Notes: generated from the letters alone by a model not told the origin. Numbered from the stretch's first letter, positions 14,677 through 56,710 are shown. The stretch is 64,000 nt of DNA from an uncultured delta proteobacterium (GCA_963803975.1 CAWDOY010000042.1:27365-91364); one strand, 5' to 3'. Numbers and translations: made by a program.

Positions 14677-14828
14677 CAGGTTGTTGAAAAAGCAGTTTTC
14701 TCCCAGGCTGGTCAAAAACATCCGGATGCAAGGCGCGCGAAATCGTGAGGAATGAGGCGTACTTTATGGTACGTCGCAATGACGAGGGATGAGCGCAACG
14801 CAGCAGATGGGTGTTTTTCAACACCCTG
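14677..14828. mobile_element. 152-bp MITE, copy 1 (reverse orientation to copies 2 and 3)
   Basis: Terminal inverted repeats CAGGTTGTTGAAAAA / TTTTTCAACACCCTG; flanked on both sides by CTAA; no ORF. Confidence 0.85.
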
Positions 14829-14865
14829 CTAAGGTTTATGTCCGTTATGTGGAAAGGAGCACATT

Positions 14866-18693: not shown

Positions 18694-19554
18694 ATGGCAG
18701 ATAAGTTCACTGAAGTGCGTATGGTCGATAACTTTTACCAGACCTCCAGTTTTTTTCCTATGCCGGTTGTTCTTGTGAGCACCCTGGCAGAGTCAGGGCA
18801 AACCAATCTGGGGCCCTACTCACTCTGTTTTCCTCACAATATCACCGGAGGAAAAGATCATGCCATGATGCTTATTGCCCGCGGCACAAGCAATACGGCC
18901 ACGAATATAATCCGGACCAGGGTGTGTGCCCTTAACTTTATCCCGCATAAAAAGAAATACATGAAAAACTGCGTCATGCTGGGGTATCCGGGCGAGACCA
19001 CTGAGGAAAAGATGAAAAACAGTATTTTTACCCTGATACCATCTACCCGGCATGAAACACAAAAATCCGCGCCCTATCCTGACATTGTAGAAGAAGCTGT
19101 TCAAGTTTTTGAATGTACCTGGGATGACAGCTATCCTTTAAAGCCGCGCGAGGATCTAGTAGAATCCCACTTTCTGCTGCGTATTGATAAGCTTGTCATG
19201 AAGGAGAAATGGAGAGATTGCCTGCTTAAGGGTAAAGGGTTTCCCAGTTTGCCGATTGATTATGGATACCGGGATAATGTGCGCTTCTGGTTTTCACGGC
19301 AATGGCGGCCCTATGCGGTCAACATCCCCAAAGAAAAAGGCAACAAAATTGAAACGGTAAGGTATGCCTGTGACCGATTTGACCCGGCTATCACCTGGGA
19401 AGATGCAGCCTGCGCAAAAATAGTGAAAGTGCCAAACATATTTTTAAATAAAGTTATCAGTGGCGTGGTGAAAACAGCAAAAGAGCAGGGGATTACGGTG
19501 ATTACCCCTGAGTTTATGGACAAAATCCGGGATAAGCGCTCAACTGAGAAATAG
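18694..19554 (+). CDS. Flavin reductase-like (DIM6/NTAB) protein with C-terminal PCP_red-like domain
   Basis: FPMPVVLVST...NLGPYS, NTATNI.RT..C.LNF, VFEC; tail WEDAACAKIVKVPNIFLNKV...AKEQGITVITPEFMDKIR. Confidence 0.7.
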   Translation: MADKFTEVRMVDNFYQTSSFFPMPVVLVSTLAESGQTNLGPYSLCFPHNITGGKDHAMMLIARGTSNTATNIIRTRVCALNFIPHKKKYMKNCVMLGYPGETTEEKMKNSIFTLIPSTRHETQKSAPYPDIVEEAVQVFECTWDDSYPLKPREDLVESHFLLRIDKLVMKEKWRDCLLKGKGFPSLPIDYGYRDNVRFWFSRQWRPYAVNIPKEKGNKIETVRYACDRFDPAITWEDAACAKIVKVPNIFLNKVISGVVKTAKEQGITVITPEFMDKIRDKRSTEK

Positions 19555-19560
19555 TGCAGC

Positions 19561-19684
19561 TGGCCGACTAGAAAGAAACTTCTAGAGATCGGGCTGTCTA
19601 ATGTGGCAGAAGACCTCGCAAAAAAAGGAAAGCTTGGCAGCCGACTGCCCGGCAATTACAGAGCTGCTGGGGAAAAAGAGCTGA
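19561..19684 (+). repeat. Diverged duplicate of the AOR 3' end (counterpart of ~922..1038)
   Basis: Reads WPTRKKLLEIGLSNVAEDLAKKGKLG../CPAITELLGK. The 30 bp TGCCCGGCAATTACAGAGCTGCTGGGGAAA are identical at 1009..1038 and 19646..19675. Confidence 0.9.
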
Positions 19685-19714
19685 GCAGTTCATTGAGGTT
19701 ATGGTGAATAGATG

Positions 19715-19757
19715 ATCGGCAGCCCTGTCATGAATGGCGGGGCTGCCGGTTTTGTTT
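19715..19757 (+). terminator. Rho-independent terminator
   Basis: ATCGGCAGCCCTGTCA...TGGCGGGGCTGCCGGT stem followed by TTTGTTT. Confidence 0.75.
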
Positions 19758-19926
19758 AGATATAAGAGGATGCAGGGGATATTTCATCCCCTTTTTTAGC
19801 AAGGGAATCTTTGAAACCATTGACCATAACAAAACCTTAAACTACATCGATTCGGCATAACCAATTTAATAAAATCATATTGTGGAATTACGGACAATTT
19901 TACAGGAAAATATTCATATAAAAACC

Positions 19927-19998
19927 TTGACGGGCAACATGTTTGCTTATATTAGGTTGACAATAGTAGAATAAGCATAAAAGACAGTGTTGGGTGGC
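19927..19998 (+). promoter_or_regulatory. attI-like site with Pc-like promoter at the head of the cassette array
   Basis: Crossover G/TTGGGTGGC at 19989 is the exact complement of GCCACCCAAC at 21039..21048. There is no attC hairpin upstream. TTGACG, TTGCTT-N18-TAGAAT and TTGACA hexamers and an inverted repeat TGCTTAT...ATAAGCA are present. Confidence 0.55.
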
Positions 19999-20029
19999 TG
20001 GTGCAGGCACACCATCGGAGGTAGATACG

Positions 20030-21034
20030 ATGGCGATTTTCTTGAAAGCGAAAAACCACGACAAGCGAAGTTTAAGGGCAAGTCTCCGTACTTCTCCTTT
20101 GCGGCTCGTGCTGACGGAATTTATAAAAGCAAGCCTCGCCCATTCTGCCTGCCGCTTGACCATGCAGAAGAAAATCTGTTTCCTGAAATTCGCCAAACCG
20201 CCATAGCCCACTTTGCTGCACACAGCATCAAATGGCATGATGGGCAAAACGGGAAGCCAAGTAATCACCTTTGCGACTCCCAAGTCTGCTGCGTCAATTT
20301 CCTTTTTCCATTTACTAATCTGCCTCACGCGTTGGCAGAAGTGTTGCGCCACCTTTCCCACCATTCGAGAAATGCTCCCAATAGAAAGCGGGCAATACGT
20401 CACCTTCGAGTGGATTGGCCAAGAAAATTACTTGGGCGAGAAAATCTCCCGCAATGGCAAACGCACACGCGGCGCGAATTTCACAGCGCGGATGCGGCGG
20501 TTATGTTTGAGCGAACAGACGGAAAGCGACAGATTGTTTTGATTGAGTGGAAGTATACCGAGTCATATGGCGGCACATCGCTGAAAATTGCTAAAAGCGG
20601 CACAGACCGCACGACCATTTATAAGGCACTCTTCAAACGCGATGATTGTCCTATCAATAAAGAACTGTTACCCGACTTCGACTCGCTTTTCTATGAGCCG
20701 TTTTATCAGTTTGTGCGGCAACAGTTGTTTAGCCAATGAAATGGAACGAGCGCAGGAATTGGGCGCAAATACGGTAAGCGTGCTTCATATCGCCCCTGCT
20801 CATAACACTGATTTTCGCAAAGTGACCTCACCCAAATTAGCAAAACTTGGCGAGACAGCCACAGAAGTTTGGAAAAAACTGGTGCTGACTCGCGGTAGGT
20901 TTATTAGTGTAAATACCGAGCAACTATTCGGTAGCCTATCCGCCGAGCAATTTCCCGAACTGCATGTGTGGCTAGAATATATCGGCATGAGATATGCCTG
21001 GGTTCGAGAAGGCACGGCAACACTTCCAAAATAA
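20030..21034 (+). CDS. Cassette 1: PD-(D/E)XK nuclease, PGN_0703-like putative restriction endonuclease (several frameshifts)
   Basis: Joined ORFs 19987, 20213 and 20588: HLCDSQVCCVNFLFP, FEWIG..NYLGE, RTRGANFTSADA, LIEWKYTESY, EPFYQFVRQQ.LA.EME; RBS GGAGG at 20017. Confidence 0.7.
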
Positions 21035-21041
21035 AGGCGCC

Positions 21042-21103
21042 ACCCAACACGGGGTTGCAGGCGACGGGGAAAACCGCCCCGCGCCTGAACCCGACCGTAA
21101 GCT
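21042..21103 (+). other. attC site 1
   Basis: R'' ACCCAAC; arms GGGTT[G]CAGGCG[A]CGGGG / CCCCGCGCCTGAACCC with two extrahelical bases; R' GTAAGCT (GTT changed to GTA). Confidence 0.85.
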
Positions 21104-21119
21104 CACTTTGGAGGCATCG

Positions 21120-22558
21120 TTGAGTCCGCGAGTGTTCATCTCCTACAGCTGGTCATCACCGGGGCACCAAGCTCGTATCCGCCAGTGGGCTGAGCAGATG
21201 GTGAGCGACGGCGTTGACGTCGTTCTCGATGTCTGGGACCTAAAGGAAGGAGATGACAAGTATGCGTTCATGGAGAAGATGGTCACGGATGAGTCTGTCA
21301 CCCACGTGCTTGTCTTCTCCGATTCGGAATATGCCGCCAAAGCCGACGCCCGCAAGGCAGGTGTCGGTACCGAATCACAGATCATCTCGCGTGAGGTGTA
21401 CTCGAAAGTTAAACAATCCAAGTTTATCCCGGTTGTCTGCGAATTCGACGACTCAGGCGAACCATTCCTGCCCACCTTCCTTAAGTCCCGTATCTGGATC
21501 GACTTCTCCAGCCCCGAGGCTAGCGAACGAGAACTGGGAGCAACTGATCCGGCTCCTCTATGGCAAGCCGGCTCACGAGAAGCCGACTCTGGGAAAGGCG
21601 CCCACCTACGTCACAACGGATGTCACTGTTCCCGCCAGCCCAGCGGTTGCGAAGTTCGCGGCACTTAAGCAGGCCATCATTCAGGAAAAGCGGGGACTGA
21701 AGCTTTATCGGCAGGACTTTCTCGACGCGTGTTACGTTTACTGCGGATGCTCTGCGCATCAGAGAGCGGCCTGACGTCACGAACATGGGCGAGCGGGTTT
21801 TGGAGGACTGCGGAAAACTCAAACTCGTGCGCGACCATATCGTGGATTGGGTCTTGCTCGAATCCGAGGTCAATCCCTCAGAAGAGTTCGGCGAGGCGCT
21901 AATTGCCATGCTTGAGCGGTTGCTTGAACTCAAGTCCAGGCCGCCAGAAGTCAATTCTTGGAGCGACGTGTGGTTCGAGGCGCATCGTGTGTTCGTCTAC
22001 GAGACCTTCCTCTACATCGTATCGCTGCTCTGATCAAGACCGGCTCGTTCGGTATTCTTCACCTTATTCTCACTAGCCACTATCTCTTGCCGGAGACAGA
22101 GGCGCATGGACCCGAACCGATTCGTCACGTTCGACGCATTCTACGGCTACTCCGAGACGCTACAGGTGCTCGCGCCCGAAGGACAGAAGCTCTACGCACC
22201 TGCGGCAGAGCTTATCAAGCGACAGGCGGATCGCACGGACTTGCCTTTCGCAGAGGTTATGCAGGCAGAGTTGCTCGTCCTGATGATGGCTTTCATCACC
22301 GATGGCGCTCGGTGGTATCCACAGACACTTCACTATTCATCGCGTGCAGGCGCATTCCCGTTCTTCGTGAGGGCTGCACAGCACCGCAACTTCCAGAAGC
22401 TCGCAAAGATCACAGGAATTGAGAGCGCAGACAAACTTCGTGAAGCCGTGAAAGCAGGGCATCAGCGGTTGGATGTGAACCAGTGGCACAACTTCTGGAT
22501 GAACGATCGATCGTTCTGGGACAGCATGAACATGGATGCACTGGATACGCTTAAGTGA
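21120..22558 (+). CDS. Cassette 2: SEFIR/TIR-domain protein (frameshifted)
   Basis: TTG start after GGAGG; PRVFISYSWSS..H, GVDVVLDVWDLKEG, YAAKADARKAGVGTESQII, KFIPVV; continues through ORFs 21253, 21785 and 22106. Confidence 0.85.
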
Positions 22559-22611
22559 GCTAACAACAGCATGCAGCGGACGGCGCCGCGCGCCGCCGCT
22601 GAGCGTTATGC
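22558..22611 (+). other. attC site 2
   Basis: R'' AGCTAAC; stem CAGCGG[A]CGGCGC / GCGCCGCCGCTG; R' GTTATGC; right arm appears about 6 nt short. Confidence 0.8.
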
Positions 22612-22651
22612 AGGATATAAAACTGAAATAAAAAAATATTGAGAATAAATT

Positions 22652-23862
22652 ATGACTAAATTAACAATTCGAGAAATAATAAAGGAAGTACCTGATATCC
22701 AGACTGTGATTTTGCCAACCCATTGGTTTGATGATCTAAGTGATAGCCAATCAGTTTTTGCTTCTTTATATTATTGGATGCTGAAAAATAGCCAAGTGCC
22801 TTCAGATAACAAAGATTCCTTGCACAATAGAACTTACGTTGGCGAAAAATTATTTAATAAATTTATTGCTGCAGAAAAAAAACGCCTTAGCAAAACGCTC
22901 AAGATTAAAGGAAACGAGTTGGAACATGCGGTTTCTTGGTCAGATATCAATTCAGGACCAAAAACAGAGATCGGTGGCTGCAGCATTAACGGGGATGTGA
23001 TTCTTGTAATACCTGAGTCGAGCAGACAAGCGCTTGGGGAATTTTCTTTAAAGATTTACAAAAGAGAACGGGATACAGCAATTAAAAAAATCAAAGCTAG
23101 TGCTGCTGGCGCTACATTTTATCAATGGTTGCTTCCTCAAATTGAACGACCTGATCCAGTTGGAGATATTGCAAGAGATGCAGTCGGTGACGAACATTTT
23201 CCTCGCGAAAGCAACCATTACGAGGAAATAAGATCGTATTTAGACTCTTAAGGTAGAAATTCTGCAGCAATTGAAAGCTTGAAAGAAGGCTGGCTAGAAT
23301 ATATTCAAAAATATCCAGAACGAGTACAACCATATGCATGGTGCAGTGCCTGTGGTGCGAAGATAAATGTTGAAAATGCTTTACTCGCATTAAACTTGGA
23401 TACGCAAGAACTACTAATTTATGATGAGAAATGCCTCAATGATTTCAAGCAATATGATGATTTCTTATCGCGTCCCTTATTGGGAATAACCCATGACGAA
23501 CTCAAAAGATTAGCTGTAAAGTACGAGGTGAGCGAATATCAAGCTGCGGTATTACTTGAGTGCTTTAATTTGTGGGGCATTATGCCTGCCAATCATTGAA
23601 TATTGTTTTGCAAGACCACTCAATGTTGTAAATAGCTGGTCGTTCGATCTCCAATTCGAAGAGGTATGACGTTATGAGACGGGGCAATTTTCAATGTGTA
23701 CTATGTGGTGCAGGCGGCAATGAAGCTAAGCTCGAAATTGATCACATAATCCCAGTCTCGCGAGGTGGTACGGATACCATAAGCAATCTTCAGTGCTTAT
23801 GCTTTAAATGCAATCGCGGGAAACACGCAAAAACAGAACCGATAAACAATATGTTAGAATGA
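22652..23862 (+). CDS. Cassette 3: unknown N-terminal domain + YozE SAM-like domain + Cys motif + HNH endonuclease (in-frame TAA at 23249, break near 23600-23630)
   Basis: TFYQWLL.Q.ERPDPVGDIARDA..D.HFP.....EEI.SYL...W.EY (YozE-like); CSACG; RYDVMRR.NFQCVLCG...LEIDHIIPVSRGG.D..SNLQCLCFKCN.GK (HNH). All lie within one attC-bounded unit. Confidence 0.65.
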
Positions 23863-23880
23863 AGATAAATTAGATAGAAG

Positions 23881-23938
23881 ACATAACAAAATCACTTCAG
23901 CCGACCGCATCCGCTGCGGCTGACTTTTAGCGTTAGCT
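23881..23938 (+). other. attC site 3
   Basis: R'' ACATAAC; TCAGCCG...CGGCTGA stem; R' GTTAGCT. Confidence 0.85.
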
Positions 23939-23961
23939 CTCTAAAATCAAAGTATTAACCA

Positions 23962-24480
23962 ATGGAAACAACGAGAAAAAAAGCTTTGGAAATCATGCAA
24001 AAGGGGCTGGTTTCCTACAAACTCCTGAGTGAAGGCTGGTATGTTAGCGATCATTTCGGCGATGGTTGTGACCTAATTGCAGAAAAAGCTGGTAGATTCG
24101 TAAAAATTGAACTCAAAGCCATTGATCTTAACAGCATAAAAAAAGGCGATAATGCAACACAACACCTGTCAGCAAATGAAATAGTTACCGCCACACATCT
24201 TATTATAACTGTATTTAAAGGCATTGAAATGAAAGATAACTACATAATGAACATTCGCCAGTTTGTGGAAAACTCAGGCGTAAAGAAATATAACAACTAT
24301 AGTAGCTTTGGAGAATTTATTGAGAAATACAAGAAATTGGCTGCGGCAAAGTCCCAACAGGTGAAAAACTTTAGAGTGAAAAAAAACGATTGGATTTTGA
24401 TTTTAATTTTAATCCCCGCAATACTGAAAAATGGAAACTATCCAAGATTTAAAAACCACTGGGGAAACATAGAATTGTAA
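23962..24480 (+). CDS. Cassette 4: small PD-(D/E)XK-type nuclease
   Basis: V.YKLLSEGW.V....DGCDLIAEKAGRFVKIELKA matches the D..(E)xK Holliday-junction-resolvase-like motif; AT-rich; 3' end may be frameshifted. Confidence 0.6.
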   Translation: METTRKKALEIMQKGLVSYKLLSEGWYVSDHFGDGCDLIAEKAGRFVKIELKAIDLNSIKKGDNATQHLSANEIVTATHLIITVFKGIEMKDNYIMNIRQFVENSGVKKYNNYSSFGEFIEKYKKLAAAKSQQVKNFRVKKNDWILILILIPAILKNGNYPRFKNHWGNIEL

Positions 24481-24524
24481 AGAGCTAACAAAGCCGTCGA
24501 CCGGACGCCGGGGAAAGCGCGGCG
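24481..24524 (+). other. attC site 4, truncated (left half only)
   Basis: AGAGCTAAC is the exact complement of GTTAGCTCT at 23932; apical CGCCG...CGGCG stem present; no L' or R' box. Confidence 0.7.
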
Positions 24525-24815
24525 GGGCCTCGCGGTAGGAGGGGAAGAATGGGTCACCCATTAAAGGTTCCTTGTCAAGAGAATAGAGTTCTCCTGTGAC
24601 AAAAAGCTATGCTGTTTTGCCTTGGAGGGGAAGAATGGGGTCAAATCTTTATCTTGACACCATGACGGCCCCTAAGATTAATAAGGCGTTCCTTGGAAAA
24701 TGAACCCAATTTGCTATTCAGTTTTATTACATGGATTTCAGCAGTTATTCAAAGATTTACGATTATGACAATATCCTTATTCACTATCTCATGAAAGGAC
24801 AAATGAGCTAGAGTA

Positions 24816-24877
24816 GCATATCAACGGCATTAAGGGCGACGGCAAAAAGCTGCCGCGCCTTATGCCAGGCGTATCTC
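24816..24877 (+). other. attC site 5, degenerate
   Basis: GGCAT[T]AAGG[G]CG[A]CGGCA / TGCCGCGCCTTATGCC stem; R'' GCATATC and R' GTATCTC both deviate from AAC/GTT. Confidence 0.7.
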
Positions 24878-24897
24878 ACTAAGGCGTGAGGTTTTTT

Positions 24898-25246
24898 ATG
24901 GAACTAGTTTATATCTCTAAACGATCTTTTAAGAATACATGGCAGGAATATCGCGTGTACCCCAATCGGCTGGAACTCCAGTTTTGGCTCGGTTTGACAG
25001 ACTATCGTGATCCCGTTCGAGAACATTGATGCAATTGAAATTCGTCCACCTTTTTCTGCTTGGGACCTTTTCAGGGGCAAGGGTTTCATTTTTTCATTCC
25101 CTTTGAAAATTGATGCGGCGGATATTTTTCGGCATCTCGCAATCAAACGCAAGAAGGGAGTTTTCAAACACATTAGGTTTACACCTGATGACCCGGAGAA
25201 TTTTTTATCTGTTGTCAAATCTCATGCCGGTAATATTGATAAATGA
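24898..25246 (+). CDS. Cassette 5: small hypothetical protein, possibly bacterial PH-like (frameshift near 25000)
   Basis: MELVYISKRSFKNTWQEYRVYPNRLEL... joins IPFENIDAIEIRPP...IRFTPDDPENFL; RBS GAGG; directly follows attC5. Confidence 0.55.
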
Positions 25247-25278
25247 TAAACAAGACCTGCAGAAGGAGGAGAATAATC

Positions 25279-25952
25279 ATGGCACGCTTGACCGAGGACT
25301 TTCTTTCCCACTTTTATTACGGGCTGAGAGAAGATTATGTGGAACGGGTGCAGGGAGCAAAGAAACCGCTCTCAGAGGTATTCCTGGGATTGACCAGAAA
25401 CAATCCGGTGCTGGTTACCTGCGATAAAAATTGTATCCCCAACGGCGCGGTCAAAAGTGTCGGCTACAATCTCAAGGAGAAACTACCTGCAGGAGGCAAT
25501 TGAAGCCTATGACAGCTTCCTTGCCCGAAGGTGGCAGAAGATACGGGAGCTGATGGGCGTCGGGTATGAGGGCGAGGGCTGGGTCTATTCACCGAATCCG
25601 GAGTTTATTGTGGACGGCCTTAAACATTCTCTCAAATATCTCTATTTTCCCAAAGAAGAGGCTGAGCAGCGAATAGACTTTGAACAGCTTGGCACCCTGG
25701 AAGGCTTTGGCAGGAAAACCTGGGAGAATATTCAGCAGAATAAAAAAGTTGCCATTGTCGTACTATTATCCGCCCGGAATTCATTTCCAGGTAAACTGCA
25801 CGGTAGAGGTGCAGAAGTCAGGGCTTATCCGGGATTTTATCAACCGGGCAGCCTGCGCTGCCCATGGCGAGAACCCGGCAAAATGGCCCTGGCGCACAGC
25901 CTACATCTTTCACGTGGAGGACGTGATAGACAAGAGCGTGTATCCGAAATGA
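25279..25952 (+). CDS. Hypothetical protein, probably split-barrel (PNPOx-like) fold; two frameshifts
   Basis: Strong RBS AGGAGGAG; ORFs 25243, 25457 and 25680 join; KTWENIQQNKKVAI.YY.PP..HFQVNCTVE. Confidence 0.55.
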
Positions 25953-26054
25953 TTGTAAAGCTATAAGCTCTCAGCTGACAGCTATCAGCCGCAATGTTAG
26001 ATAAAAAATACCGCGGTCAATTTTAAAAACACTTTTTCTGAATGAGGAACTTAT

Positions 26055-26819
26055 ATGAATACTATTAAAATCATGCCCTGCCTGGATATGAAAGACGGCC
26101 GGGTGGTCAAGGGTATCCATTTTGTAGACATCAAGGATGCCGGAGACCCGGCGGCACATGCTGAATTTTACCAAAAAGAAGGCGCTGATGAGCTTGCGAT
26201 GCTCGATATTGCCGCGACCCTTGAGAACCGCAAAACCCGGCTGGAGTGGGTTAAGAATGTCTCGTCGGTTATTGATATACCGCTCACCGTCGGCGGCGGT
26301 ATCGGCAGCATTGATGATATTGAACAGGTGCTTGCGGCAGGAGCTGACAAGGTCTCCATGAACAGCGCAGCGGTGAAATCACCGCAGCTGGTACGGGAGG
26401 CGGCAGGAAAGTTCGGTTCAGAAAAAATCGTCGTTGCCATTGACGGCCGCCGCAACAAAGATATGCCGTCCGGGTTTGAAGTGGTGGTATCGGGCGGCAC
26501 CAAACCTGCCGGCAGAGATGCTGTTGTCTGGGCACGAGAGTGCCAGAAGCTGGGAGCGGGGGTGATTCTGCCCACCAGCATGGATGGTGATGGAACCCGT
26601 GCAGGGTATGATCTTGCTTTCACACGGGCAATTGCCGATGCGGTTGACCTACCGGTTATTGCGTCAGGCGGGGCAGGGACGCTTGAACATTTTTATGAGG
26701 GCGTGGTGAAGGGCGGCGCTGATATCCTGCTGGCAGCCTCGGTGTTTCATTTCCGCATTTTCAGCATTAAAGAAGTTAAAGAGTACCTGAAGAGTAAGGG
26801 GCTGCAGGTTAATCTCTAA
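26055..26819 (+). CDS. hisF: Imidazole glycerol phosphate synthase cyclase subunit
   Basis: IMPCLDMKDGRVVKG, DAGDP, IPLTVGGGI, AGADKVS.NSAA, TSMD.DGT..GYDL, PVIASGGAG, LAASVFH. Confidence 0.95.
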   Translation: MNTIKIMPCLDMKDGRVVKGIHFVDIKDAGDPAAHAEFYQKEGADELAMLDIAATLENRKTRLEWVKNVSSVIDIPLTVGGGIGSIDDIEQVLAAGADKVSMNSAAVKSPQLVREAAGKFGSEKIVVAIDGRRNKDMPSGFEVVVSGGTKPAGRDAVVWARECQKLGAGVILPTSMDGDGTRAGYDLAFTRAIADAVDLPVIASGGAGTLEHFYEGVVKGGADILLAASVFHFRIFSIKEVKEYLKSKGLQVNL

Positions 26820-26971
26820 CAGGCTGTTGAAAAACACCCATCTGCTTTGTTGCGCTCATCCTTCGTCATTGCGACGTACTGTAATGTACGCCTCATTCCT
26901 CAGGATTTCGCGCGCCTTGCATCCGGATGTTTTTGACCAGCCTGGGAGAAAACTACTTTTTCAACAACCGG
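26820..26971. mobile_element. 152-bp MITE, copy 2
   Basis: CAGGCTGTTGAAAAA...TTTTTCAACAACCGG; CTAA on both sides, the left one containing the hisF stop codon. Confidence 0.85.
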
Positions 26972-27068: not shown

Positions 27069-29151
27069 CTATCCCTGCCCCAGGCGGTTATTTTTTTCGA
27101 GTTCATCCGCAACATAACCTAATGCGAGTGATTCCAGTGTCGCTCTGGAAGGATAACCGGTAGCCGTGTCCCACCCCTGCATTTTATAAAATAAGGTTTT
27201 GAACTCTTCAAACTTTTGTCTGTCTACGATCCTGGGTTCAATGCCACTGGCATTCCACGAACCTTCTTTTCTAACGAAAAAAGTTTTATCCGTTCTGCCG
27301 GCGGGGATGTCGTAGATATAGTCGGCATACTGCACCATATCCCGGTGCCGGCCCTGCAACGTCCAGATGGCATGATCAAGGTTCCATATTTTTCTGCCAA
27401 GCTCTATGCCGTCAAGGAACGTAAAATTTTTACCGGTCACGATATTAAAGAACAAGGGTTCTGCTTCGCCGGTGGACCCTATCATATCAGGGGCATAGGA
27501 ATTGATAAAGTCCGGCCAGCGATTGTCGCACAACAGCATCGACTGTTTCCAGAACCGGGTGTAGTAGCGGTGCCAGGACACCAGCTTTGCCATATGTTCC
27601 GAATACATGTTATCGGTACTGAAATCGAGCATGAGCCGGTCGTCCTGAAAGGGGACCATTTTATCGGTAACGATGTTGATGACTTCTTCGGGAGACAGCT
27701 GTTTTGCGCCGTTATAAAATATTTCCTTAAGAAAAACATACAGCCGCATAATGTCATGCTCATTAATATCCCGGTCGCCTAAAATGGTGCCATACCCCCA
27801 TTCGACCTGAATCCTCGGGTCAAAGTGAAAGGGGAATCCCCAGTATGGATACTCAAGCTTGCCGGTCTTCAGGTCCTCTTCCAGCCTGCCCCATTTTTCT
27901 GCTGCCCTGACAGCTCCTTCGGCGATAATGTTGCCGCACTCGTGCTCGTTGCCGAGCCCGTCATTCCGGTAGGCTACCATCTTCAAAAACTGATCTATAA
28001 ATTCAAGGCTCCCGATGTCAGCAAAATTGAGCGGGCAGTCAATCTCTTTCCCGGGGCCCAGAATTCCCTCTTTGTTGAGCTGCCGCATATAGGTATAGCA
28101 CCCGTATGCTTCAAGACAGTTGATGCCGTATTTATTTAAAAGATCTACGGCCTGGTGGAGAATCTCGGCAGATTTTGCTGACAGATAAAATGTTGTTTCA
28201 GAACATGTTGCTTCGTTGCCAAGACCGCTTTCATACCTCCTGCGGCAGCCTGAATGGCAGCCAATACATGCCTGAGGCCTCTGCCCGCTGCTATGCTTAA
28301 AGTTGGGAAAGCTTTCCCAGGTTGTTCCCTGACCGGGAGGGCTCTGAAACAAATTCGGGGTTCCGGCATCTTTGGGGTTATCAAAGTCATAAGCATACTG
28401 CGCTACCTGTTCAAGCCGTGCCTTAAACAATGCCTTGGGGTCAGAAATTGTGATACTGCCGGTTCCCATCACGCTGATGGCCTTCAGCTTTTTGGAACCC
28501 CACACTGCGCCGAATCCTCCCTGGCCGGAGGTATTGGATGCGCCATGCTGAAGTACTGCCATCCTGCTCAGATTTTCCCCGGCCGGGCCGATGGTCAGCA
28601 CAGCAGGCCGCTGCGTGCTTCGTGCATCGCTCGCACTGTCAGGGCTCACCCAGGTATGCATAGCTGCCGCTTCCTGCAATATAATCGCAGATAATCTCCT
28701 GGCTTTCCCAGGCATCCTTGCCCCATAGCGATAAATCACTGCAGTCCCTGATCGTTACCTCTCCGTCTCTGATGTCAATCCAGGCCGGGGTGTCTGCCGC
28801 ACCTTCAATGGCGATCCCGTCCCATCCGGCAAACTTGAGCATCGTGGAAAACCGCCCGCCGAAACCGCTTCTGGTGAACCACTCCACCGGGTACGGCTGC
28901 GCCCCGATGCCCTGAACTTCAGTTCTTGACGAGCAGCCCGGTGCCATGGTTCCTGACAGCGGAGAAGTCATGATGGTCACCACGTTGGCGGGGTCAAACG
29001 CGCTGATTGTTTTGTCCTTCACCAGATCAAAGAAAATCGCCGAGCCAATGCCGTGCCCGCCGCCCCACTGCTCATAATCGCTGGTAGGTATGGAAGAGAT
29101 GCTTTTTGTGGTTAAATTTACCCGCAATATTTTTCCTGCATATCCGTACAT
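27069..29151 (-). CDS. Aldehyde:ferredoxin oxidoreductase family protein (frameshift near 28650)
   Basis: MYGYAGKILRVNLT, GGHGIG, GG.F...LKFAGWDGI.IEG, IGPAGENL, GG.GAVWGSKKLKAI, C.GC..GC, GWD..TG.P.R.TL..L.L. Confidence 0.88.
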
Positions 29152-29202
29152 TGTTTATCCTCCGCTCTGCTTATTAGTGCATTGCCGTCGCGATTGTTTG
29201 CC

Positions 29203-38672: not shown

Positions 38673-38813
38673 ATAGCCAACCCCTTCCAGAATATGTTTG
38701 TTATGATTTATATCTTTAACCAGTTCTCTCCTGGAGGATAATTTACACCATTACGAGTAGAATGGAACAAAAATGTTATTCAAGCATTCTTTTTTGTGGA
38801 GACGATTTGATTC

Positions 38814-40525
38814 ATGAATATCTTTAAGCCGGATTTAATTCTCCTGCATGCCCCCAGCGTTTATGACTTCCGCAAGGAGCCGATCATGTTCGGCCCCATA
38901 AGCGACGTCATTCCCTCCACCGCGGTGTTTGAGATGTACCCGGTCGGCTTTTCTGCCATCTCAGAATACCTGGGGGAGCGGGGCTTCAGCGTGCGGATTA
39001 TAAACCTTGCCTTCCAGATGCTTGATGATCCCGCCTTTGACCCGGAACAGCTGCTGAAGAAACTCTCCCCGATTGCTTTTGGCATTGACCTCCACTGGCT
39101 TCCCCATGCGCACGGAAGCCTTGCGGTGGCGCGGCTCTGTAAAAAATATCACCCGCACATCCCGGTCATATTCGGCGGCTATTCTGCAACCTATTTCCAT
39201 GAAGAGCTGATCCTTTATCCGCAGGTTGATGTGGTGGTGCGGGGCGATTCCACGGAAGAGAGCGATGCTTCAGGTTCTTGACGCCATCAAAAATAACGGC
39301 AGCCTCAACGCCATCCCCGGCATTACCTGCAAAGAGAAGGGGAAGGTAACCATTAATCCGCCGGTACAGCCGGTATCGGACCTGAATCACTGCTCAAACA
39401 ATTATCTGGCCCTGTTTAAAAATTCCATTAAATTCGGCGTCAAAGGCTTCACCCCCATTTATGACTGGTGGGAATATCCCATAACTGCGGTCATGACCTG
39501 CCGTGGCTGCACGCAGAACTGCGTTATCTGCGGCGGCTCGCAGCTATGCGCTGAAAAAATTCTGCAGCCGCGAGGAGATTGCCTATCGCCGGCCGGAGCT
39601 GATTGTGGAAGATATGAAGAACATCTGCCGCTATACCCGCGCCCCGGTATTCGTGGTGGGAGATTTGCGGCAGCCCGGAGATGATTATGCAGAAACAATC
39701 CTGCAGGGCCTCAGCAACCTGAAATTCGACAACCGCGTGGTTATTGAGCTCTTTGAGCCGGCACCGGAAGCATACTTTAAAAGAGTTTCAGGATCAATCC
39801 GGCATTTTAATTTTGAAGTTTCACCAGAATCCCATGATGAAACAGTGCGGAGAGCCTCAGGGAAGCTCTACTCGAATCATGACCTGGAGGCCTCCATCAG
39901 TGCAGCGCTTACATACGGCTGCGAGAAGTTTGACATCTTTTTCATGATCGGCGTGCCCCGGCAGACCTGCCAGTCGGTGATGGAAACCATAGATTATTGC
40001 GATTATCTGATGCAGAAGTATGACCGGCGGCTCAATGCATTTATTTCTCCGCTGGCACCGTTTGTTGATCCGGGCAGCATTGCCTATGAAGAATCAGAGA
40101 AAGTCGGATACCGGATTTTTTACCGCACGCTTGAAGAGTACCGGACGGCGCTTCTTGCCCCGAGCTGGAAGCACACCTTGAGCTATGAGACGCGGTGGAT
40201 GAGCCGCGATGAGATCGCAGCAAGCACCTATGAAGCTGCCCTTCGCCTCAACCGGCTGAAAAGAAAGTACGGCCGCATTTCCGAGGAAGTATTTCAGGAT
40301 GTTGAAGGGAGAATTATCATAGCCGTGGAGCTTATAAAAAAGATAGATGAGATTATGGAGAAGGTTCCGGCTTCTGAACAGCGAAACGCCCTGCTCGCTT
40401 TAAAAAAAGATATTGACCGGGTCAATGAATCAACCCTGTGCCACACCGAAGAAATCAAATGGCCCACGGCTAAAAGCCCGTTCCGGTTTTTCAATATTGT
40501 GAAGGATGTGCTGATGGGGAAGTAA
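38814..40525 (+). CDS. B12-binding domain / radical SAM protein (TIGR04190-like); two frameshifts
   Basis: LLHAPSVYDFR..FEMYPVG, GIDLHWL.H.HG, CRGCTQNCVICGGS, SPESHDE, FFMIG.P.Q. Confidence 0.8.
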
Positions 40526-40788: not shown

Positions 40789-41988
40789 ATGTTCACGGAC
40801 AGGCAATTAGATAACTATGCAGAGGTGCTGCTGTGGGGCATAAAGACGGCTCGTGACGGGCAGTACAAAAAGAATGATATCATCCTGGTGCGCTACGATC
40901 TGGCGGCACTCAAGCTTGCCGAGATTCTGCAGAATAAAATTCTTGAGCAGGGAATGCATCCCCTGCTGCGTTTGAGCGCGACCTCAACCATGGAGCTTAC
41001 GTTTTATGCATTGGCAAACCCTGCCCAGCTGGTGTTTCAGGCACCGGGAGACCGGGAGCTCTGCGAGCATTTGAACGGCAGTATCTACCTGCATGCCCCC
41101 GAGTCCCTTACCCATCTGAGTGTCATTGACCCGCGTAAAATCGGGAAAGCAGCAGTTGCCCGCAAGCCGCTGCGGGATATCCTTACCCGGCGGGAGGAGA
41201 AGGGCCTGTTCGGCTGGACCCTCTGTTCTCTTCCCACCCCAGCGCAGGCGCAGCACGCCGGGCTCTCCCTCAAAGACTATACCAGCCAGATTACTAAAGC
41301 CTGCTACCTCCACACGGCACATCCGGTCCGGGAGTGGGAAACCATCCTGAAGAAGGCCGCAGCCATAAAGAAGTGGCTCAACAGCATGCAGGTCGCGGCC
41401 TATCATGTAGAATCGGACCGGATCGATCTCATGCTGACGCCGGGACAGCAGCGGCGCTGGGTCGGCGTCTCCGGCCACAATATCCCGAGCTTTGAGCTCT
41501 TCCTCTCCCCGGACTGGCGCGGCACGCAAGGGGTCTATTATGCAAACCAGCCGTCCTTTCATAACGGCAACTATGTGGAAGGCGTGCGGCTGGAGTTTAA
41601 AAAAGGCGCAGCCATTAAAATGCAGGCCAGGAAGGGTGCAAACTTCGTGAAGAAGCAGCTGTCCATGGACACGGGCGCCAACAAGGTGGGCGAGTTCTCG
41701 TTAACTGATACCCGCTTCTCAAAAATCGACCGGTTCATGGCTAATACCCTGTACGACGAAAACTACGGCGGCCGCTATGGCAACTGCCATCTGGCCGTAG
41801 GCTCGTCATACACTGATACCTATGCCGGCAATCCCGCACGCCTGACCAGGGAGATAAAAGCGCAGCTTGGTTTTAATGACTCGGCGCTGCACTGGGATCT
41901 CATCAATACCGAGCAGAAGACGGTAACCGCTCATCTGAAATCAGGCAAGAAGCTGGTTATCTATGAGAAAGGGAAGTTTACTTGTTAA
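40789..41988 (+). CDS. Aminopeptidase (M29, AmpS/AmpT-like)
   Basis: NIPSFELF, KVGEFSL, NTLYDEN, HLAVG.SY, NDSALHWD. Confidence 0.88.
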   Translation: MFTDRQLDNYAEVLLWGIKTARDGQYKKNDIILVRYDLAALKLAEILQNKILEQGMHPLLRLSATSTMELTFYALANPAQLVFQAPGDRELCEHLNGSIYLHAPESLTHLSVIDPRKIGKAAVARKPLRDILTRREEKGLFGWTLCSLPTPAQAQHAGLSLKDYTSQITKACYLHTAHPVREWETILKKAAAIKKWLNSMQVAAYHVESDRIDLMLTPGQQRRWVGVSGHNIPSFELFLSPDWRGTQGVYYANQPSFHNGNYVEGVRLEFKKGAAIKMQARKGANFVKKQLSMDTGANKVGEFSLTDTRFSKIDRFMANTLYDENYGGRYGNCHLAVGSSYTDTYAGNPARLTREIKAQLGFNDSALHWDLINTEQKTVTAHLKSGKKLVIYEKGKFTC

Positions 41989-42050
41989 GCTTTCAGCCAA
42001 CCAGCGGCTGCAGCTATCCTGAGCTAAGAGCTGGCAGCTATCCGCCTCCT

Positions 42051-42900
42051 ATGTATAATTCTGAACGCCGCTCCATTCTCTGCCCGCAATGCAGGAAACT
42101 TATCAGCCTTGATGAGCCGCAATGTCCCTACTGTGGTCTGTCCCATCCTGGGGCCTGGTGGAAAACCAGGCTCTTCAGCCTGGTTGCACTCGATGCCGGC
42201 AGCATCGTCAGGACGCTTGTTATTATAAATATAGTGCTGTTTGCAGTTTCGGTGCTGCTGAGCAGTGCCGGGTCTCAGCATGTCGGCAAATCCCCTGGGC
42301 TTTCTGTCCCCTTCAAACAACATCCTTTTGCTCCTGGGCGCTACCGGCACCATCCCCATCGAGCGGTTCAACCGCTGGTGGTCGCTTCTGGCTGCCGGGT
42401 ACCTGCATGGCGGCATCCTGCATATCTTTTTTAACATGACCGCGCTCTACCAGATAGGCCCGCTGGTGCTGCAGGAATACGGCCTTAACCGCATGATTAT
42501 CCTCTACACGCTGGGCAGCATCTGCGGCTTTCTGCTCTCATATCTTGCCGGGGTTCCCTTCACCATTGGCGCTTCGGCAAGCCTGTGTGCCCTCATCGGG
42601 GCGCTGCTGTACTACGGTAAAAGCCGCGGCGGCATCTACGGCCAGAATATATACCGGCAGGTTTTAGGGTGGGTTATCGGGCTCGGGCTGTTTGGCCTTA
42701 TAGTGCCCGGCATCAACAACTGGGGCCATGGAGGCGGGCTTGCCAGCGGCATTGCGTTCGGATTTTTACTGGGCTACAATGAAATAAAACAGGAGACAAG
42801 CCTGCATAGGTTGCTTGCCCTGGTCTGCATTGCTGCTACCGCAGCCATCCTTCTGTGGGCTCTCGGTTCAACATGCTATTATCTCTTTTTTGTGCACTAG
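42051..42900 (+). CDS. Rhomboid intramembrane serine protease with N-terminal Zn ribbon (frameshift near 42262)
   Basis: CPQC..CPYCG; YLHGGILHIFFNM, IGASAS, NWGHGGG. Confidence 0.85.
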
Positions 42901-43088
42901 CACCTGCGGCATGAAGAACGGCACCCAGGAGGGGCTGCGGGCTCAGGTTGCTGTAGACAGGAATATAAAAATGGGATAATAGTATTAAGACGCTGCGGAT
43001 ATACCGATCCGCCTGCGGCGGTGTCTAAAAATATTTTCCGTCACCTATCTTGAGGAATGCCTATCATTCCTCTCTTTTTATTTGCTGT

Positions 43089-44269
43089 ATGCAGAAAATC
43101 AAGGTCATCAACCCCATCACCAGACTCATTGTCGGCGGTGCACAGGAAACGGTCATAGAAACCTGTGCCTGCATAAACAAGGACCGGTTTGAGACGCAGA
43201 TCGTTGCCGGGCCGCAGACCGGTCCGGAGGGAGAGCTCATATCCGAGGTAAAAAAAAGGCAGATCCCTCTGACCGTAATCCCTGAGCTGGTGCGAGAGAT
43301 CAATCCGGTAAAAGATTTTATTGCTGCCTATAAGCTGGTCAAACTGTTTAAGCGGGAGCAGCCGCACATTGTGCACACCCACAGCTCCAAGACCGGCATC
43401 ATCGGCCGCTGGGCAGCGCGTCTTGCCAGGGTGCCGGTCATAGTGCACACGGTTCACGGCTGGGGACACCACCCCTATCAGCAGCCGCTCATACAGAAGA
43501 TATACATTTTTGCTGAACAGAAAACAGTTCCCTTTACTGACAAGCTCATCGCGGTATCAACGCTCAATGTTGATAAGGGGCTTAAAGACCATATTGGTAC
43601 CAGGGAGAAATATGCTGTTATCCACAGCTGCATAAACCTGGATGACTTCAGCCGGCCGAAGGCTAGATCCGTTAGTCACTGAGAAAGGCGCTGGGCATTG
43701 ACGCAGCCAGCCCGGTGGTGGGAACCGTGAGCCGCCTGTCACACCAGAAAAACCCGCTTGATTTTGTCAGGATGGCGGCACAGGTTAAAAAAGAGATCCC
43801 GACCGCACAGTTTTTGTTCGTGGGAGACGGACCGCTGCGCGCTGAGACCGAGGCGCTCATACGGGAGCTGCATCTGGAGCAGGATATTATTCTTGCCGGG
43901 CTGCGCATGGATGTGCCCGACCTGCTGCACGCCATGGATATTTTTACGCTGACTTCACTTTGGGAAGGCCTGCCGCGGGTCATCCCCCAGGCCATGATTG
44001 CAGGACTTCCGGTAGTGGCAAACAACGTGGATGGCAATGCTGAAATTATCCGGGACGGGGTAAACGGCTTTCTTACGCCCCCGGGAGATATTTCACTGAT
44101 GGCAGAGAGAATCGTCCGGCTCCTTAAAGACCAGCCTTTGAAGCAGGCAATTGTTGCGCAGGGGCGGGAGACGGCTGCACAAGAGTTTTCGCTCCATGAC
44201 ATGGTGAAAAAAATTGAAACCCTCTATGATGAACTGCTTACCCTGAAGGGGATAACAGCAAAGACGTGA
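43089..44269 (+). CDS. Glycosyltransferase family 4 (frameshift near 43665)
   Basis: GGAQE, IVHTHSSK.G, HTVHGW, VGDG.LR, SLWEGLPRV..QAM.AG.PVV. Confidence 0.88.
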
Positions 44270-54772: not shown

Positions 54773-56355
54773 TTAGCGGGTTCCCAGCTTTTCCCGTATG
54801 CACTCGATAGCTTCTCGTTCCCAGTCAGGGGGCTCAGTCCGCGGCCGCCAGCCATCATAGCGCTCGGGCACGGGCGTAGTGGCATCCAGTATTACCTGTT
54901 CGGCCTGTGGTTCAGCGCCCCGGTCCCTGCTGCGGAATCCAAGCATTGCGTCGATGCCGGGGAAATCCTTCCTGGCGGCAGTCGTGCTTGACAGGGGCGC
55001 GGCACGCATGGCAACGGTCCAGGCAACCTGGGCAGCATCATGGGGATCAATATCAGGCCCCACTACTATTATATAGGGTGAAGCAGCGTGCACACCGTAG
55101 GAGGACAAGCGCCGCTCCAACTTCCTGCCCGTAATGGGAGTGCGGCTTTGCTTTGCCGTCAACTGTCAGTTGAATCACGGTCATAAATGGACCAACAAGT
55201 AGAACTACATCTTTTACCAGGAACCCGAGCCCACGCAGATAATTGAGCGCCTCTACCTCGAGGTTCAGAAGCGCCAGGGCTGAGTGGGTCCCCTCATTCC
55301 CGTGCAGTCCGCCCACTGAAGACAAATTGCCGGCCCAGAGCGCGTCCCGGCGATGAGTCATGCAGCGCACGCGAAATACGGTGTAGGTCATATCGCCCAG
55401 AACAAAGCCGATAAAATTGTCCTCACCGGCATAGGCTGGCATCTTCTCCTGCTGCGGCAGAAATTCTCCTTCAATAACCCACTCGGTGTGTGCAGGAATC
55501 ATGAGCCCCGGCACGGTCTCGCTCTCCACGAGGTCAACCGGCTCTCCCCTGAGGCCGCCCAGCATCTCATATTCATCGCCGCTCTCCGGCCAGGGAATGG
55601 TCTTTATCGGTGCCAGCATCTCAATATCAGCCGGATCGCCAAAAATGAAAACGCCGGGCATGGGTTTGCCGGCAGCGCGGTGTTTCTGATAAAAACGACC
55701 GGTGTTGCTCATGCGCGGGACCTGCAAGCTGCAATGCCGCAACCATGTGGCGCTTTACCAGCTCTTCAGGATAGGGAGTAGCCGGGTTTGCGTCGCGCCA
55801 CTCATACTGGCCGAGCCTGATTTTCCCCAGGCTGTGGCAGCCGGTTTCAGGGTCGCGCAGTATTAGCGTAGCGTTAAAGGTGCTCCACAGGGATTGCTGA
55901 AATTCTACCCAAACCCGCGGCAGGTCTTTTCGCAGGTCAAGACGGTCTTCCGGGATAATAACTTCCTTGCAGGGCGATTTTTTTCCGGACACTATGCGCG
56001 GCTTGACGCGGCAGGTAGAAAGGTCTTTTATCTTCCGGCACAGCTCATCTTTTTCGCGCAGGCCCATGCCCCTGAGCACACGCTCCCGTGTGGGCCAGGG
56101 ATTGACCACCACCGCTACATCAGGCCGGTTGTAGACGGGTTTTTCGAGAATGCCGGTGGGCTTCCCGGGCAGGCTGTGCAGGTACCGGGCGAGGGCACGC
56201 ACTTCAGTCTCCGGCTGTTTGCCGGGAATGCTGTTGCCAATGTCAACGATTGAAGAGTAATCACCGCATTTTATCGGCGCTGTAATACGCACCACTGTGC
56301 CCAGGTTCTCTTCTTCCAGCAGCCAGTCGCGAAAACTTTTATATGGATACGACAT
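54773..56355 (-). CDS. UbiD family (prFMN-dependent) decarboxylase-like protein; two frameshifts
   Basis: SFRDWL..E..G, EYE..GGLRGEPV.LV, IPA..EWVIEG, VV..DIDP.D..QV.W..AMR, ILDAT.P. Confidence 0.75.
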
Positions 56356-56710
56356 CAGGAACTCCGGTAACTGCTTACCATTTTTTGCTCACTTCAAACA
56401 GAGCTCAGTCACAACCTGTTACGTTTTTCATTATAAGGGATTTTTTATAAAAAGGAAACGAGCAAGAAAAAAAGGGATGCTGCTATAATAAAGTATGCAA
56501 TGGCTTGAGCAGAAGTGGCCTTGTGCTTATAAACAGTAAGCATGAATTTTACTGATAATAGCGTACCACAATATATGGCACATATTAAAAAGCAGGGCCA
56601 TTGCTTTAACATGATATATGCAGTTTTGTAAAAGTGTAGACTACGTTTCACATTATTGCATATAGAATATTCAGGTCCTGATTCTTTGGTTCACACCTCT
56701 CATGTTCCCA

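Follow-up and report, generated by a model that had tools for sequence, protein, structure and literature searches.

A CALIN-type array of one known defence cassette and three putative cassettes for defence or nuclease functions in an uncultured delta proteobacterium

Identity and layout of the array

A 64,000-nucleotide stretch of DNA from an uncultured delta proteobacterium (GCA_963803975.1, CAWDOY010000042.1:27365-91364), referred to below as the window, contains at positions 19917-24876 a row of integron-type cassettes with no integrase next to it, known as a CALIN (attC sites in a cluster that has no integron integrase), an identification that is made with considerable confidence. Four cassettes are arranged head to tail behind a 72-nt leader, and the array represents an element type that is already known, equipped with one known defence cassette and three putative defence or nuclease cassettes. 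Its reading frames are co-oriented and separated by GC-rich imperfect hairpins, with a flavin-reductase-like gene (18694-19554) on one side and hisF (26055-26819) on the other, and both flanks lie within one long contig. To judge by the names attached to homologues, the organism would probably be a sediment bacterium resembling sulfate reducers. CALINs are recognised by two or more attC sites of the same strand that lie no further than 4 kb apart and are detected with a covariance model combining sequence and structure, and here three sites on the + strand, spaced by 1.3-1.5 kb, were matched at E<=7e-4 by a covariance model built without any sequence from the window. A complete integron would carry an adjacent, divergent intI gene with the IntI-specific extra domain, and no such gene was found beside the array, where the position upstream of the leader is occupied by the flavin-reductase-like gene.

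attC sites and cassette boundaries

Rfam contains no attC family and gave no match at the gathering score in the window, and a dedicated model was constructed from related genomes. The integron integrase profile TIGR02249 scored above its cut-off in 15 of the 61 genomes searched, a set that includes the window's own genome, which has none, and the DNA on the cassette side of the intI genes of several relatives was used as the source of attC sites. Nine AAC...hairpin...GTT sites beside IntI were chosen with a home-made scan and then aligned; the scan was dropped for genome-wide use as too noisy, and a MAFFT alignment of the five sites of the window was discarded as a model basis, being out of structural register. 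RNAalifold folded the nine sites into the canonical layout, in which a 4-bp R box is followed by an L box whose segments of 3, 6 and 3 bp are separated by two bulges, with compensatory changes in 11 of the 16 pairs of the training alignment. The resulting covariance model, R1, was thus derived solely from the IntI-linked sites of relatives, and was run with filters off over both strands of the 64 kb.

The first-pass annotation of this DNA had claimed five attC hairpins, and the three at 21042, 22558 and 23881 were all matched by this independent model. The highest score was obtained for attC 3 (23881-23938, +; 35 bits, E 3.5e-6), followed by attC 2 (22558-22611, +; 29.2 bits, E 1e-4) and attC 1 (21042-21103, +; 26.1 bits, E 7e-4), the last of which has GTA rather than GTT as its right box. 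No other match in the window fell below E 0.2, the fourth rank being taken by a spurious 35-nt match (E 0.24). Across the whole of the own genome, for which the best 150 of 382 candidates were scored, attC 3 was again the best match, and only this array was returned at E<=1. The attC sites of the array belong to the same structural family as those adjoining true IntI genes in related genomes.

The remaining two of the five claimed hairpins did not stand equally well. Site 5 (24816-24876, +) folds into an imperfect hairpin (-14 kcal/mol) that carries its bulges on the arm where the other sites have theirs, is marginal by R1, and is probably a degenerate last attC; one related metagenome contig is without a base at 24857. 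At 24481-24545 (+) the attC 4 remnant retains a left box, AGAGCTAAC, that complements the start of its cassette, without a hairpin or a GTT right box. The full architecture, which combines R'' ending in AAC and R' beginning with GTT with an imperfect hairpin of the L boxes whose extrahelical bases are confined to a single arm, is displayed by sites 1, 2 and 3 (with GTA for GTT in site 1), weakly by site 5, and not by site 4. In sites 1, 2, 3 and 5 the bulged bases are all located on one arm, corresponding to the 3' arm of the bottom strand, and the attC 1 hairpin has two of them on one arm, 6 pairs apart. Bulges on a single arm spaced by 6 pairs are the geometry of classical attC sites. The folding z-scores of single sites are modest, about -1.8 to -3.2; the case is carried by the R1 matches together with the complementarity of the cassette ends. 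The attC 2 core (22560-22602) recurs nearly identically in dozens of contigs from two freshwater or sediment metagenome runs, with unrelated flanks and a summed depth of about 500, and this attC type is abundant in those communities.

The complementarity between the start and the end of four consecutive cassettes, as expected for circular cassettes, was reproduced exactly as first described. It extends over 10 of 10 bases for cassette 1 (19989/21048; ends GTTGGGTGGC/GCCACCCAAC), 11 of 12 for cassette 2 (21097/22564; the mismatch at position 3 being GTA for GTT), 6 of 6 for cassette 3 (22605/23887) and 9 of 9 for cassette 4 (23932/24489). Each cassette begins with a (G)TT-side half-site and terminates in an attC whose left box complements its own start, which is the footprint of circular cassettes inserted singly at a G|TT crossover. 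The same relationship was seen in a second array of the own genome and in an array of the same-genus genome G001. The abrupt change of base composition between cassettes was likewise confirmed, the GC fractions of cassettes 1 to 4 being 0.499, 0.561, 0.385 and 0.380 against 0.505 for the genome.

The leader at the head of the array

The 72-nt leader (19917-19988, +) ends just before the GTT at 19989 and contains promoter-like hexamers directed toward the array, TTGACG followed by TATATT/TATTAG. Ten copies were collected by blastn from the four genomes of the family, distributed as two in the own genome (the window and contig C31), two in G001, one in G002 and five in G003, and TTGAC(A/G) with TATATT/TATTAG is kept in nine of the ten. 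When the loci are aligned, similarity starts sharply at an A-run and stops exactly at the GTT in all ten, after which the sequence is different in every locus, the GTT being followed mostly by purines. On the array strand downstream of sister leaders, R1 gave nine matches in five of the eight loci searched, eight of them at E<=0.0014 and one at E 0.07. The second leader of the own genome, on C31, precedes a single cassette with the ends GTTAGGCC/GGCCTAAC and no R1 match. Outside the family, no leader was found in 401 genomes of the phylum, for each of which the best two candidates were scored, nor was one found in viral contigs. From its position and conservation, we infer that the leader may be a compact attI combined with a promoter.

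Two terminator-like hairpins (19714-19751 and 19774-19792, +) lie between an upstream gene remnant and the leader, and would shield the array from read-through transcription. The remnant itself (19555-19684), situated after the stop of the flavin-reductase-like gene, is what is left of an AFOR-like coding region at its 3' end. G001 has two copies of it, with an attC (R1 24.9 bits), a 138-aa open reading frame (ORF) and a MazEF-like pair between them, which indicates that cassettes also occur upstream of that leader.

In the mechanism proposed here, the leader would function as attI and would supply a promoter for the transcription of the cassettes, which have none of their own, the most recent arrival would be the cassette adjoining the leader, and the integrase that built the array would be non-resident, having been supplied in trans or lost. 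The cargo genes would act as single-gene effectors against phages or mobile elements, and most frame breaks of the array would reflect indel errors left uncorrected in a part of the assembly that varies between strains, rather than decay of the genes.

Cassette turnover among relatives and, probably, strains

The same flanks (87% identity) and the leader are present on one contig of G001 without any of the cassettes of the window; behind the junction, an HNH_2 cassette with the ends GTTATCC/GGATAAC and toxin-antitoxin genes were found instead. Moreover, contigs from four sediment or freshwater metagenomes match the leader region at 91-96% and the stretch 24830-26100 at roughly 97-99% in their longest pieces, and those contigs stop or diverge from the window at 19984-19991, as exemplified by two contigs of 742 and 544 nt with 620 and 290 nt foreign to the window. 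In metagenome contigs, cassette 3 (96% identity) is preceded by an upstream site other than that of the window. The samples share the distal end (24836-25357) and vary at the leader-proximal end, as expected if new cassettes enter at the leader; array parts without metagenome contig cover are uninformative. These data make strain-level cassette turnover likely rather than proven, and some of the contigs possibly represent paralogous leaders. Sister arrays carry ThsB-type TIR, HSDR_N, DCD, DUF2283, weak HEPN-like and antitoxin genes as their cargo. The idea of a terminal element common to the arrays beyond their last attC was given up, since it was seen only in those of the own genome (G000) and G001 and is absent from those of G003.

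It may tentatively be proposed, as a possibility of rather low probability, that the family keeps several 72-nt promoter and attI landing pads per genome without IntI, each of which captures a short cassette row of its own. Cassette content differs between two congeners, and apparently between near-identical strains, and on this reading insertion and loss would be driven by an integrase that visiting mobile integrons, plasmids or phages supply in trans, or by a recombinase that is not recognised as IntI.

Cargo genes

According to the first-pass annotation, four of five cargos were nucleases or SEFIR and the locus was a cassette-built defence island. Four nuclease or SEFIR genes were indeed recovered, and they make up the whole cargo, which amounts to four genes and not five, the three ORFs of cassette 3 being a single gene. 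A defence-like cargo is supported as far as cassette 2 is concerned; for the other three a role in defence is putative.

Cassette 1 (19989-21097, +) carries a predicted REase-ARP PD-(D/E)xK nuclease gene at about 20030-21034, whose product matches PF22558 with 87.4 bits against a cut-off of 27 over profile positions 18-197, the C-terminal piece following in another frame with 18.2 bits over positions 193-269.

Cassette 2 (21098-22605, +) carries a bSEFIR-type gene (21120-22558) with a TTG start behind GGAGG. It matches the bSEFIR model of PADLOC, PDLC03957, with 222 bits over residues 3-136 and with a further 36 bits on the next frame piece. SEFIR proteins have been described as single-gene defences that protect B. 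subtilis against phi29, and the Millman preprint, in its accessible portion, takes as its criterion a SEFIR match stronger than the TIR match (10.1101/2022.05.11.491447). In Pfam the product scores 53 bits for TIR_2 and 49.3 bits for SEFIR by hmmscan, a comparison that the preprint makes with HHsearch. Judged by these profile matches, cassette 2 alone is assigned to an experimentally tested defence family.

Cassette 3 (22606-23932, +), which extends from attC 2 to attC 3, contains one gene (22652-23862) for a protein of about 400 aa, in which an N-terminal domain without assignment is joined to a SAM-like domain of the YozE type, a zinc-ribbon-like part with CxxC and, at the C-terminus, an HNH domain (PF01844, 58.4 bits against a cut-off of 21.4). 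The 130 homologues, which reach 76% identity, are mostly single proteins of 396-401 aa, and those of full length carry HNH C-terminally. Across this protein family the first approximately 315 residues are conserved, including the YozE SAM-like domain and the CxxC motif, and the C-terminal nuclease is HNH in some members and T5orf172/MUG113 (GIY-YIG-like) in others; a module swap of this sort is typical of conflict systems. Around the homologues R1 gave 23 matches, all on the gene strand, in 11 of 25 loci; several of these matches directly flank the gene, homologues are located between attC sites in other metagenomes, and this identifies a widespread cassette family. A scan of genome contigs returned only two loci for cassette 3, and none was found in 41 other genomes of the class, save one HNH-only match. 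The predicted structure (pLDDT 69, pTM 0.40) gave no Foldseek match at E<=0.001 when the whole-protein model was searched, and the VIA-align matches were confined to weak ones, zinc-finger-like at Z<=4.9 and HNH at Z 4.2.

Cassette 4 (23933-24530, +) carries a gene (23962-24480) for a 172-aa protein with a predicted PD-(D/E)xK-like fold. None of its 102 homologues, which are about 160-172 aa long, has a precomputed Pfam domain, and in 28 sequences D37, E50 and K52 are invariant, corresponding to D...ExK. The best sequence-family score, 18.5 bits for PDDEXK_5, lies below the cut-off of 26.1. The structural model (pLDDT 82.9) was matched by Foldseek best to I-Ssp6803I (E 1e-4), followed by the SPARDA nuclease, Hjc and PvuII; the matches listed are all PD-(D/E)xK nucleases, 16 of them at E<=0.001, with TM scores of 0.35-0.54. 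Modelling thus lends moderate support to a PD-(D/E)xK core fold with D...(D/E)xK residues. Taken together, the cargo appears to be of conflict or defence type, and cassettes 1, 3 and 4 may be regarded as candidate defence genes.

The missing integrase

The absence of an integrase, which had been claimed from the window, was borne out by a search of the whole genome within the limits of a 98%-complete draft (4.25 Mb, 57 contigs). The best TIGR02249 score in the own genome was 78 bits against a cut-off of 265, with no match on the contig of the window, and by NCBIfam the two best tyrosine recombinases were XerC (343 bits) and XerD (368 bits). IntI above the cut-off is likewise missing from the family's three other genomes (89-98% complete).

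The incompleteness of these drafts leaves some room for an ordinary integron integrase that is present in the organism and was left unbinned or unassembled, in which case the integrase-less character would be an artefact. In related genomes IntI is often found on short contigs of 2.5-4 kb, and CALINs are overestimated in draft genomes, as noted in the available part of the IntegronFinder 2.0 paper (PMC9024848). This explanation is nevertheless considered unlikely: both flanks of the array belong to a single long contig, on which no intI adjoins the leader, IntI above the cut-off is missing from all four genomes of the family, which together hold ten leaders, and seven of the ten leader loci can be read 500-700 nt upstream without an IntI match. 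CALINs are about as common as complete integrons and occur also in genomes without any IntI, according to the portions available of the two papers on IntegronFinder and CALINs (PMC4889954, PMC9024848).

Frame breaks: assembly error or decay

At least three frame breaks were counted in cassette 1 and four in cassette 2, which is thereby split into five pieces; one is located in the ORF 24886-25246 and two in the backbone gene 25243-25966. Cassette 3 has an in-frame TAA (23249-23251) and one frame change before the HNH domain, and in cassette 4 a +1/-1 slip pair, starting in an A8 run (about 24386-24393), garbles approximately 20 residues near the C-terminus. The density of breaks is about one per 12-15 kb outside the array stretch and about two per kb inside it.

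These features could be taken as the marks of a fossil, in which the integrase was lost long ago, the cassettes are neither moved nor used, and the frame breaks and the stop are real decay. At least 13 frame breaks and one in-frame TAA within about 6 kb, a broken attC 4 and a weak attC 5 would agree with this, and CALINs have been proposed as degraded integrons in the text available (PMC9024848). The character and the distribution of the breaks argue otherwise. Almost every one is a 1-base indel, near-identical contigs otherwise differ little from the window, and the broken genes still match their families strongly, as seen in the 222 bits for bSEFIR and in 76-78% identity to intact homologues. 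Genes outside the cassettes are broken likewise. The backbone gene next to hisF (25243-25966, +), which is not a cassette and lies at the right edge of the error-rich stretch, is intact in G001 (223 aa) and is split in the window by two 1-base insertions, and related metagenome contigs are without the extra bases of the window at 24996, 25480/25483 and 25758. Beyond the array, splits at consecutive Pfam positions affect at least four of the window's ordinary genes, namely two for AFOR, one for a GT4 glycosyltransferase and one for UbiD (3-1047; 27072-29154, -; 43029-44266; 54776-56388, -), which indicates indel errors throughout the assembly. In addition, the variation in cassette content between congeners and near-identical strains argues for recent turnover. 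Decay of a long-abandoned array is hence regarded as improbable, and the frame breaks are most simply, and probably correctly, read as indel errors that went uncorrected, most densely where variation between strains leaves few supporting reads. In the second array of the own genome, the single cassette is read in three frames, and the cassette ORFs of G001 and G003 mostly look whole. Further genes that are possibly split were noticed at 38811-40522 and 41967-42897.

A third explanation, in which the hairpins would be no more than terminators or repeat elements that separate unrelated genes and resemble attC by chance, might appeal to single-site fold z-scores of only about -2 and to the many background matches of a loose AAC...GTT hairpin scan in the window, and is scarcely credible in view of the three R1 sites being the sole matches below E 0.2 in the 128 kb searched, of end complementarity of 6-11 bases in four successive cassettes, of bulged bases always on the same arm and of the same site family adjoining IntI in relatives; it is effectively refuted by the R1 matches together with the cassette ends.

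Several observations weigh against the reading of the locus as a defence-type CALIN behind an attI-like leader. Two of the five claimed sites are weak or broken: site 5 reached only 16 bits (E 0.28, rank 5) with R1, and attC 4 gave no R1 match and folds no better than shuffled sequences (z -0.3 and -0.2). The model itself is based on nine training sites and has been calibrated only roughly, the genome is a draft of 57 contigs, and the genome-wide attC search scored 150 of 382 candidates. The leader is not listed by a strict sigma-70 scan, in which spacing and hexamers fail, and no similarity to known attI or to the regions adjoining IntI in relatives was found for it, so that its attI role and its promoter role are both proposed from position. 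With regard to the cargo, only one of the four genes matches a defence-system-specific model, and the HNH matches of cassette 3 are to a generic nuclease domain. Finally, the best public run shared 0.14 of the words sampled from the whole stretch, and the frame breaks could thus be real.

Array tail and repeats

In the tail of the array a 75-nt repeat (24551-24628) was recognised, which is found also on contigs C39, C18 and C25 of G000 and twice in G002, and metagenome contigs break at both of its ends (24551 and 24625). A short direct repeat, GGAGGGGAAGAATGGG, lies at 24539 and again at 24623. The ORF 24886-25246 (about 120 aa), which follows the last attC and precedes the backbone gene, has no family match; it is absent from G001-G003 and contiguous with the backbone in metagenome contigs, and it could be either a final cassette that lacks an attC or a piece of backbone specific to the strain. 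Directly after hisF (26817-26969), and again at 14679-14831 (-), there is a repeat of about 155 nt. At least 40 copies at 90-96% identity were found in the own genome, where 40 of 116 candidates were scored, with dozens in G001 and G002 and few in G003. It has no Rfam match, and looks like an element of the MITE (miniature inverted-repeat transposable element) or REP (repetitive extragenic palindromic) type.

Comparison with known systems

Compared with published CALINs, as they are presented in the accessible sections of the two reports (PMC4889954; PMC9024848), the array is alike in its attC sites, which number about five and of which two or more share a strand within 4 kb, and in the lack of a nearby intI; no relation exists between its cassettes and those carried by clinical integrons, and its genome is without any IntI, a situation that those authors call surprisingly frequent. 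It differs in the conserved promoter-like and attI-like leader at its head, which is multi-copy in the family. In the same sections, split-off CALINs are described without the promoter Pc, and attI outside the clinical classes is stated to be unknown or poorly described (PMC4889954, PMC9024848). No description of such a multi-copy leader was returned by a literature search, although one may still exist in print. What goes beyond the literature consulted is the presence of this leader in several copies in a family that has no IntI, along with signs that cassettes were exchanged recently.

Sedentary chromosomal and mobile integrons have been presented as anti-phage stores with small, mostly single-gene cassettes for defence or nuclease fusions, in the parts available of two preprints (10.1101/2024.07.02.601686; 10.1101/2024.07.02.601719), and the cassettes of the window are of the same kind. 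A further point of agreement is the toxin-antitoxin cassettes of the sister arrays. The stores have a resident IntI and cassettes tested with phages, as far as the available text of the sedentary-integron preprint goes, whereas the present array has no IntI and is known from sequence alone; SEFIR has 0 occurrences in the main text of that preprint (10.1101/2024.07.02.601686).

With the bSEFIR defence genes, as portrayed in the accessible part of their description (10.1101/2022.05.11.491447), cassette 2 shares an N-terminal SEFIR/TIR-like domain and a long C-terminal part within one gene. It is unlike them in being borne on an integron cassette, in having its frame broken in the assembly and in a TIR_2 score slightly above that of SEFIR. 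Cassette 4 shares its predicted fold with the minimal PD-(D/E)xK nucleases, namely the homing endonuclease I-Ssp6803I, the resolvase Hjc, PvuII and the nuclease domain of SPARDA (Foldseek E 1e-4 to 1e-3, TM 0.4-0.5 on the target), and is distinguished from them by the lack of a Pfam family at the cut-off and by an identity to its structural matches of 10-23%.

Significance

The locus provides a clean, checked example of a defence-type cassette array from an uncultured sediment lineage. Two candidate families are offered for phage-defence screens, the approximately 400-aa YozE/zinc-ribbon proteins with a swappable nuclease end and the 172-aa minimal PD-(D/E)xK proteins, and intact homologues exist for both. 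The multi-copy leader is a concrete candidate for an attI with a promoter outside the clinical integron classes, for which such sites are poorly described in the text available (PMC9024848), and the leader system is a testable case for the building and renewal of integrase-less arrays. If capture at the leaders by an integrase or recombinase other than a resident IntI were true, integrase-free cassette capture at multiple sites would be a working lifestyle in this family and not a product of decay.

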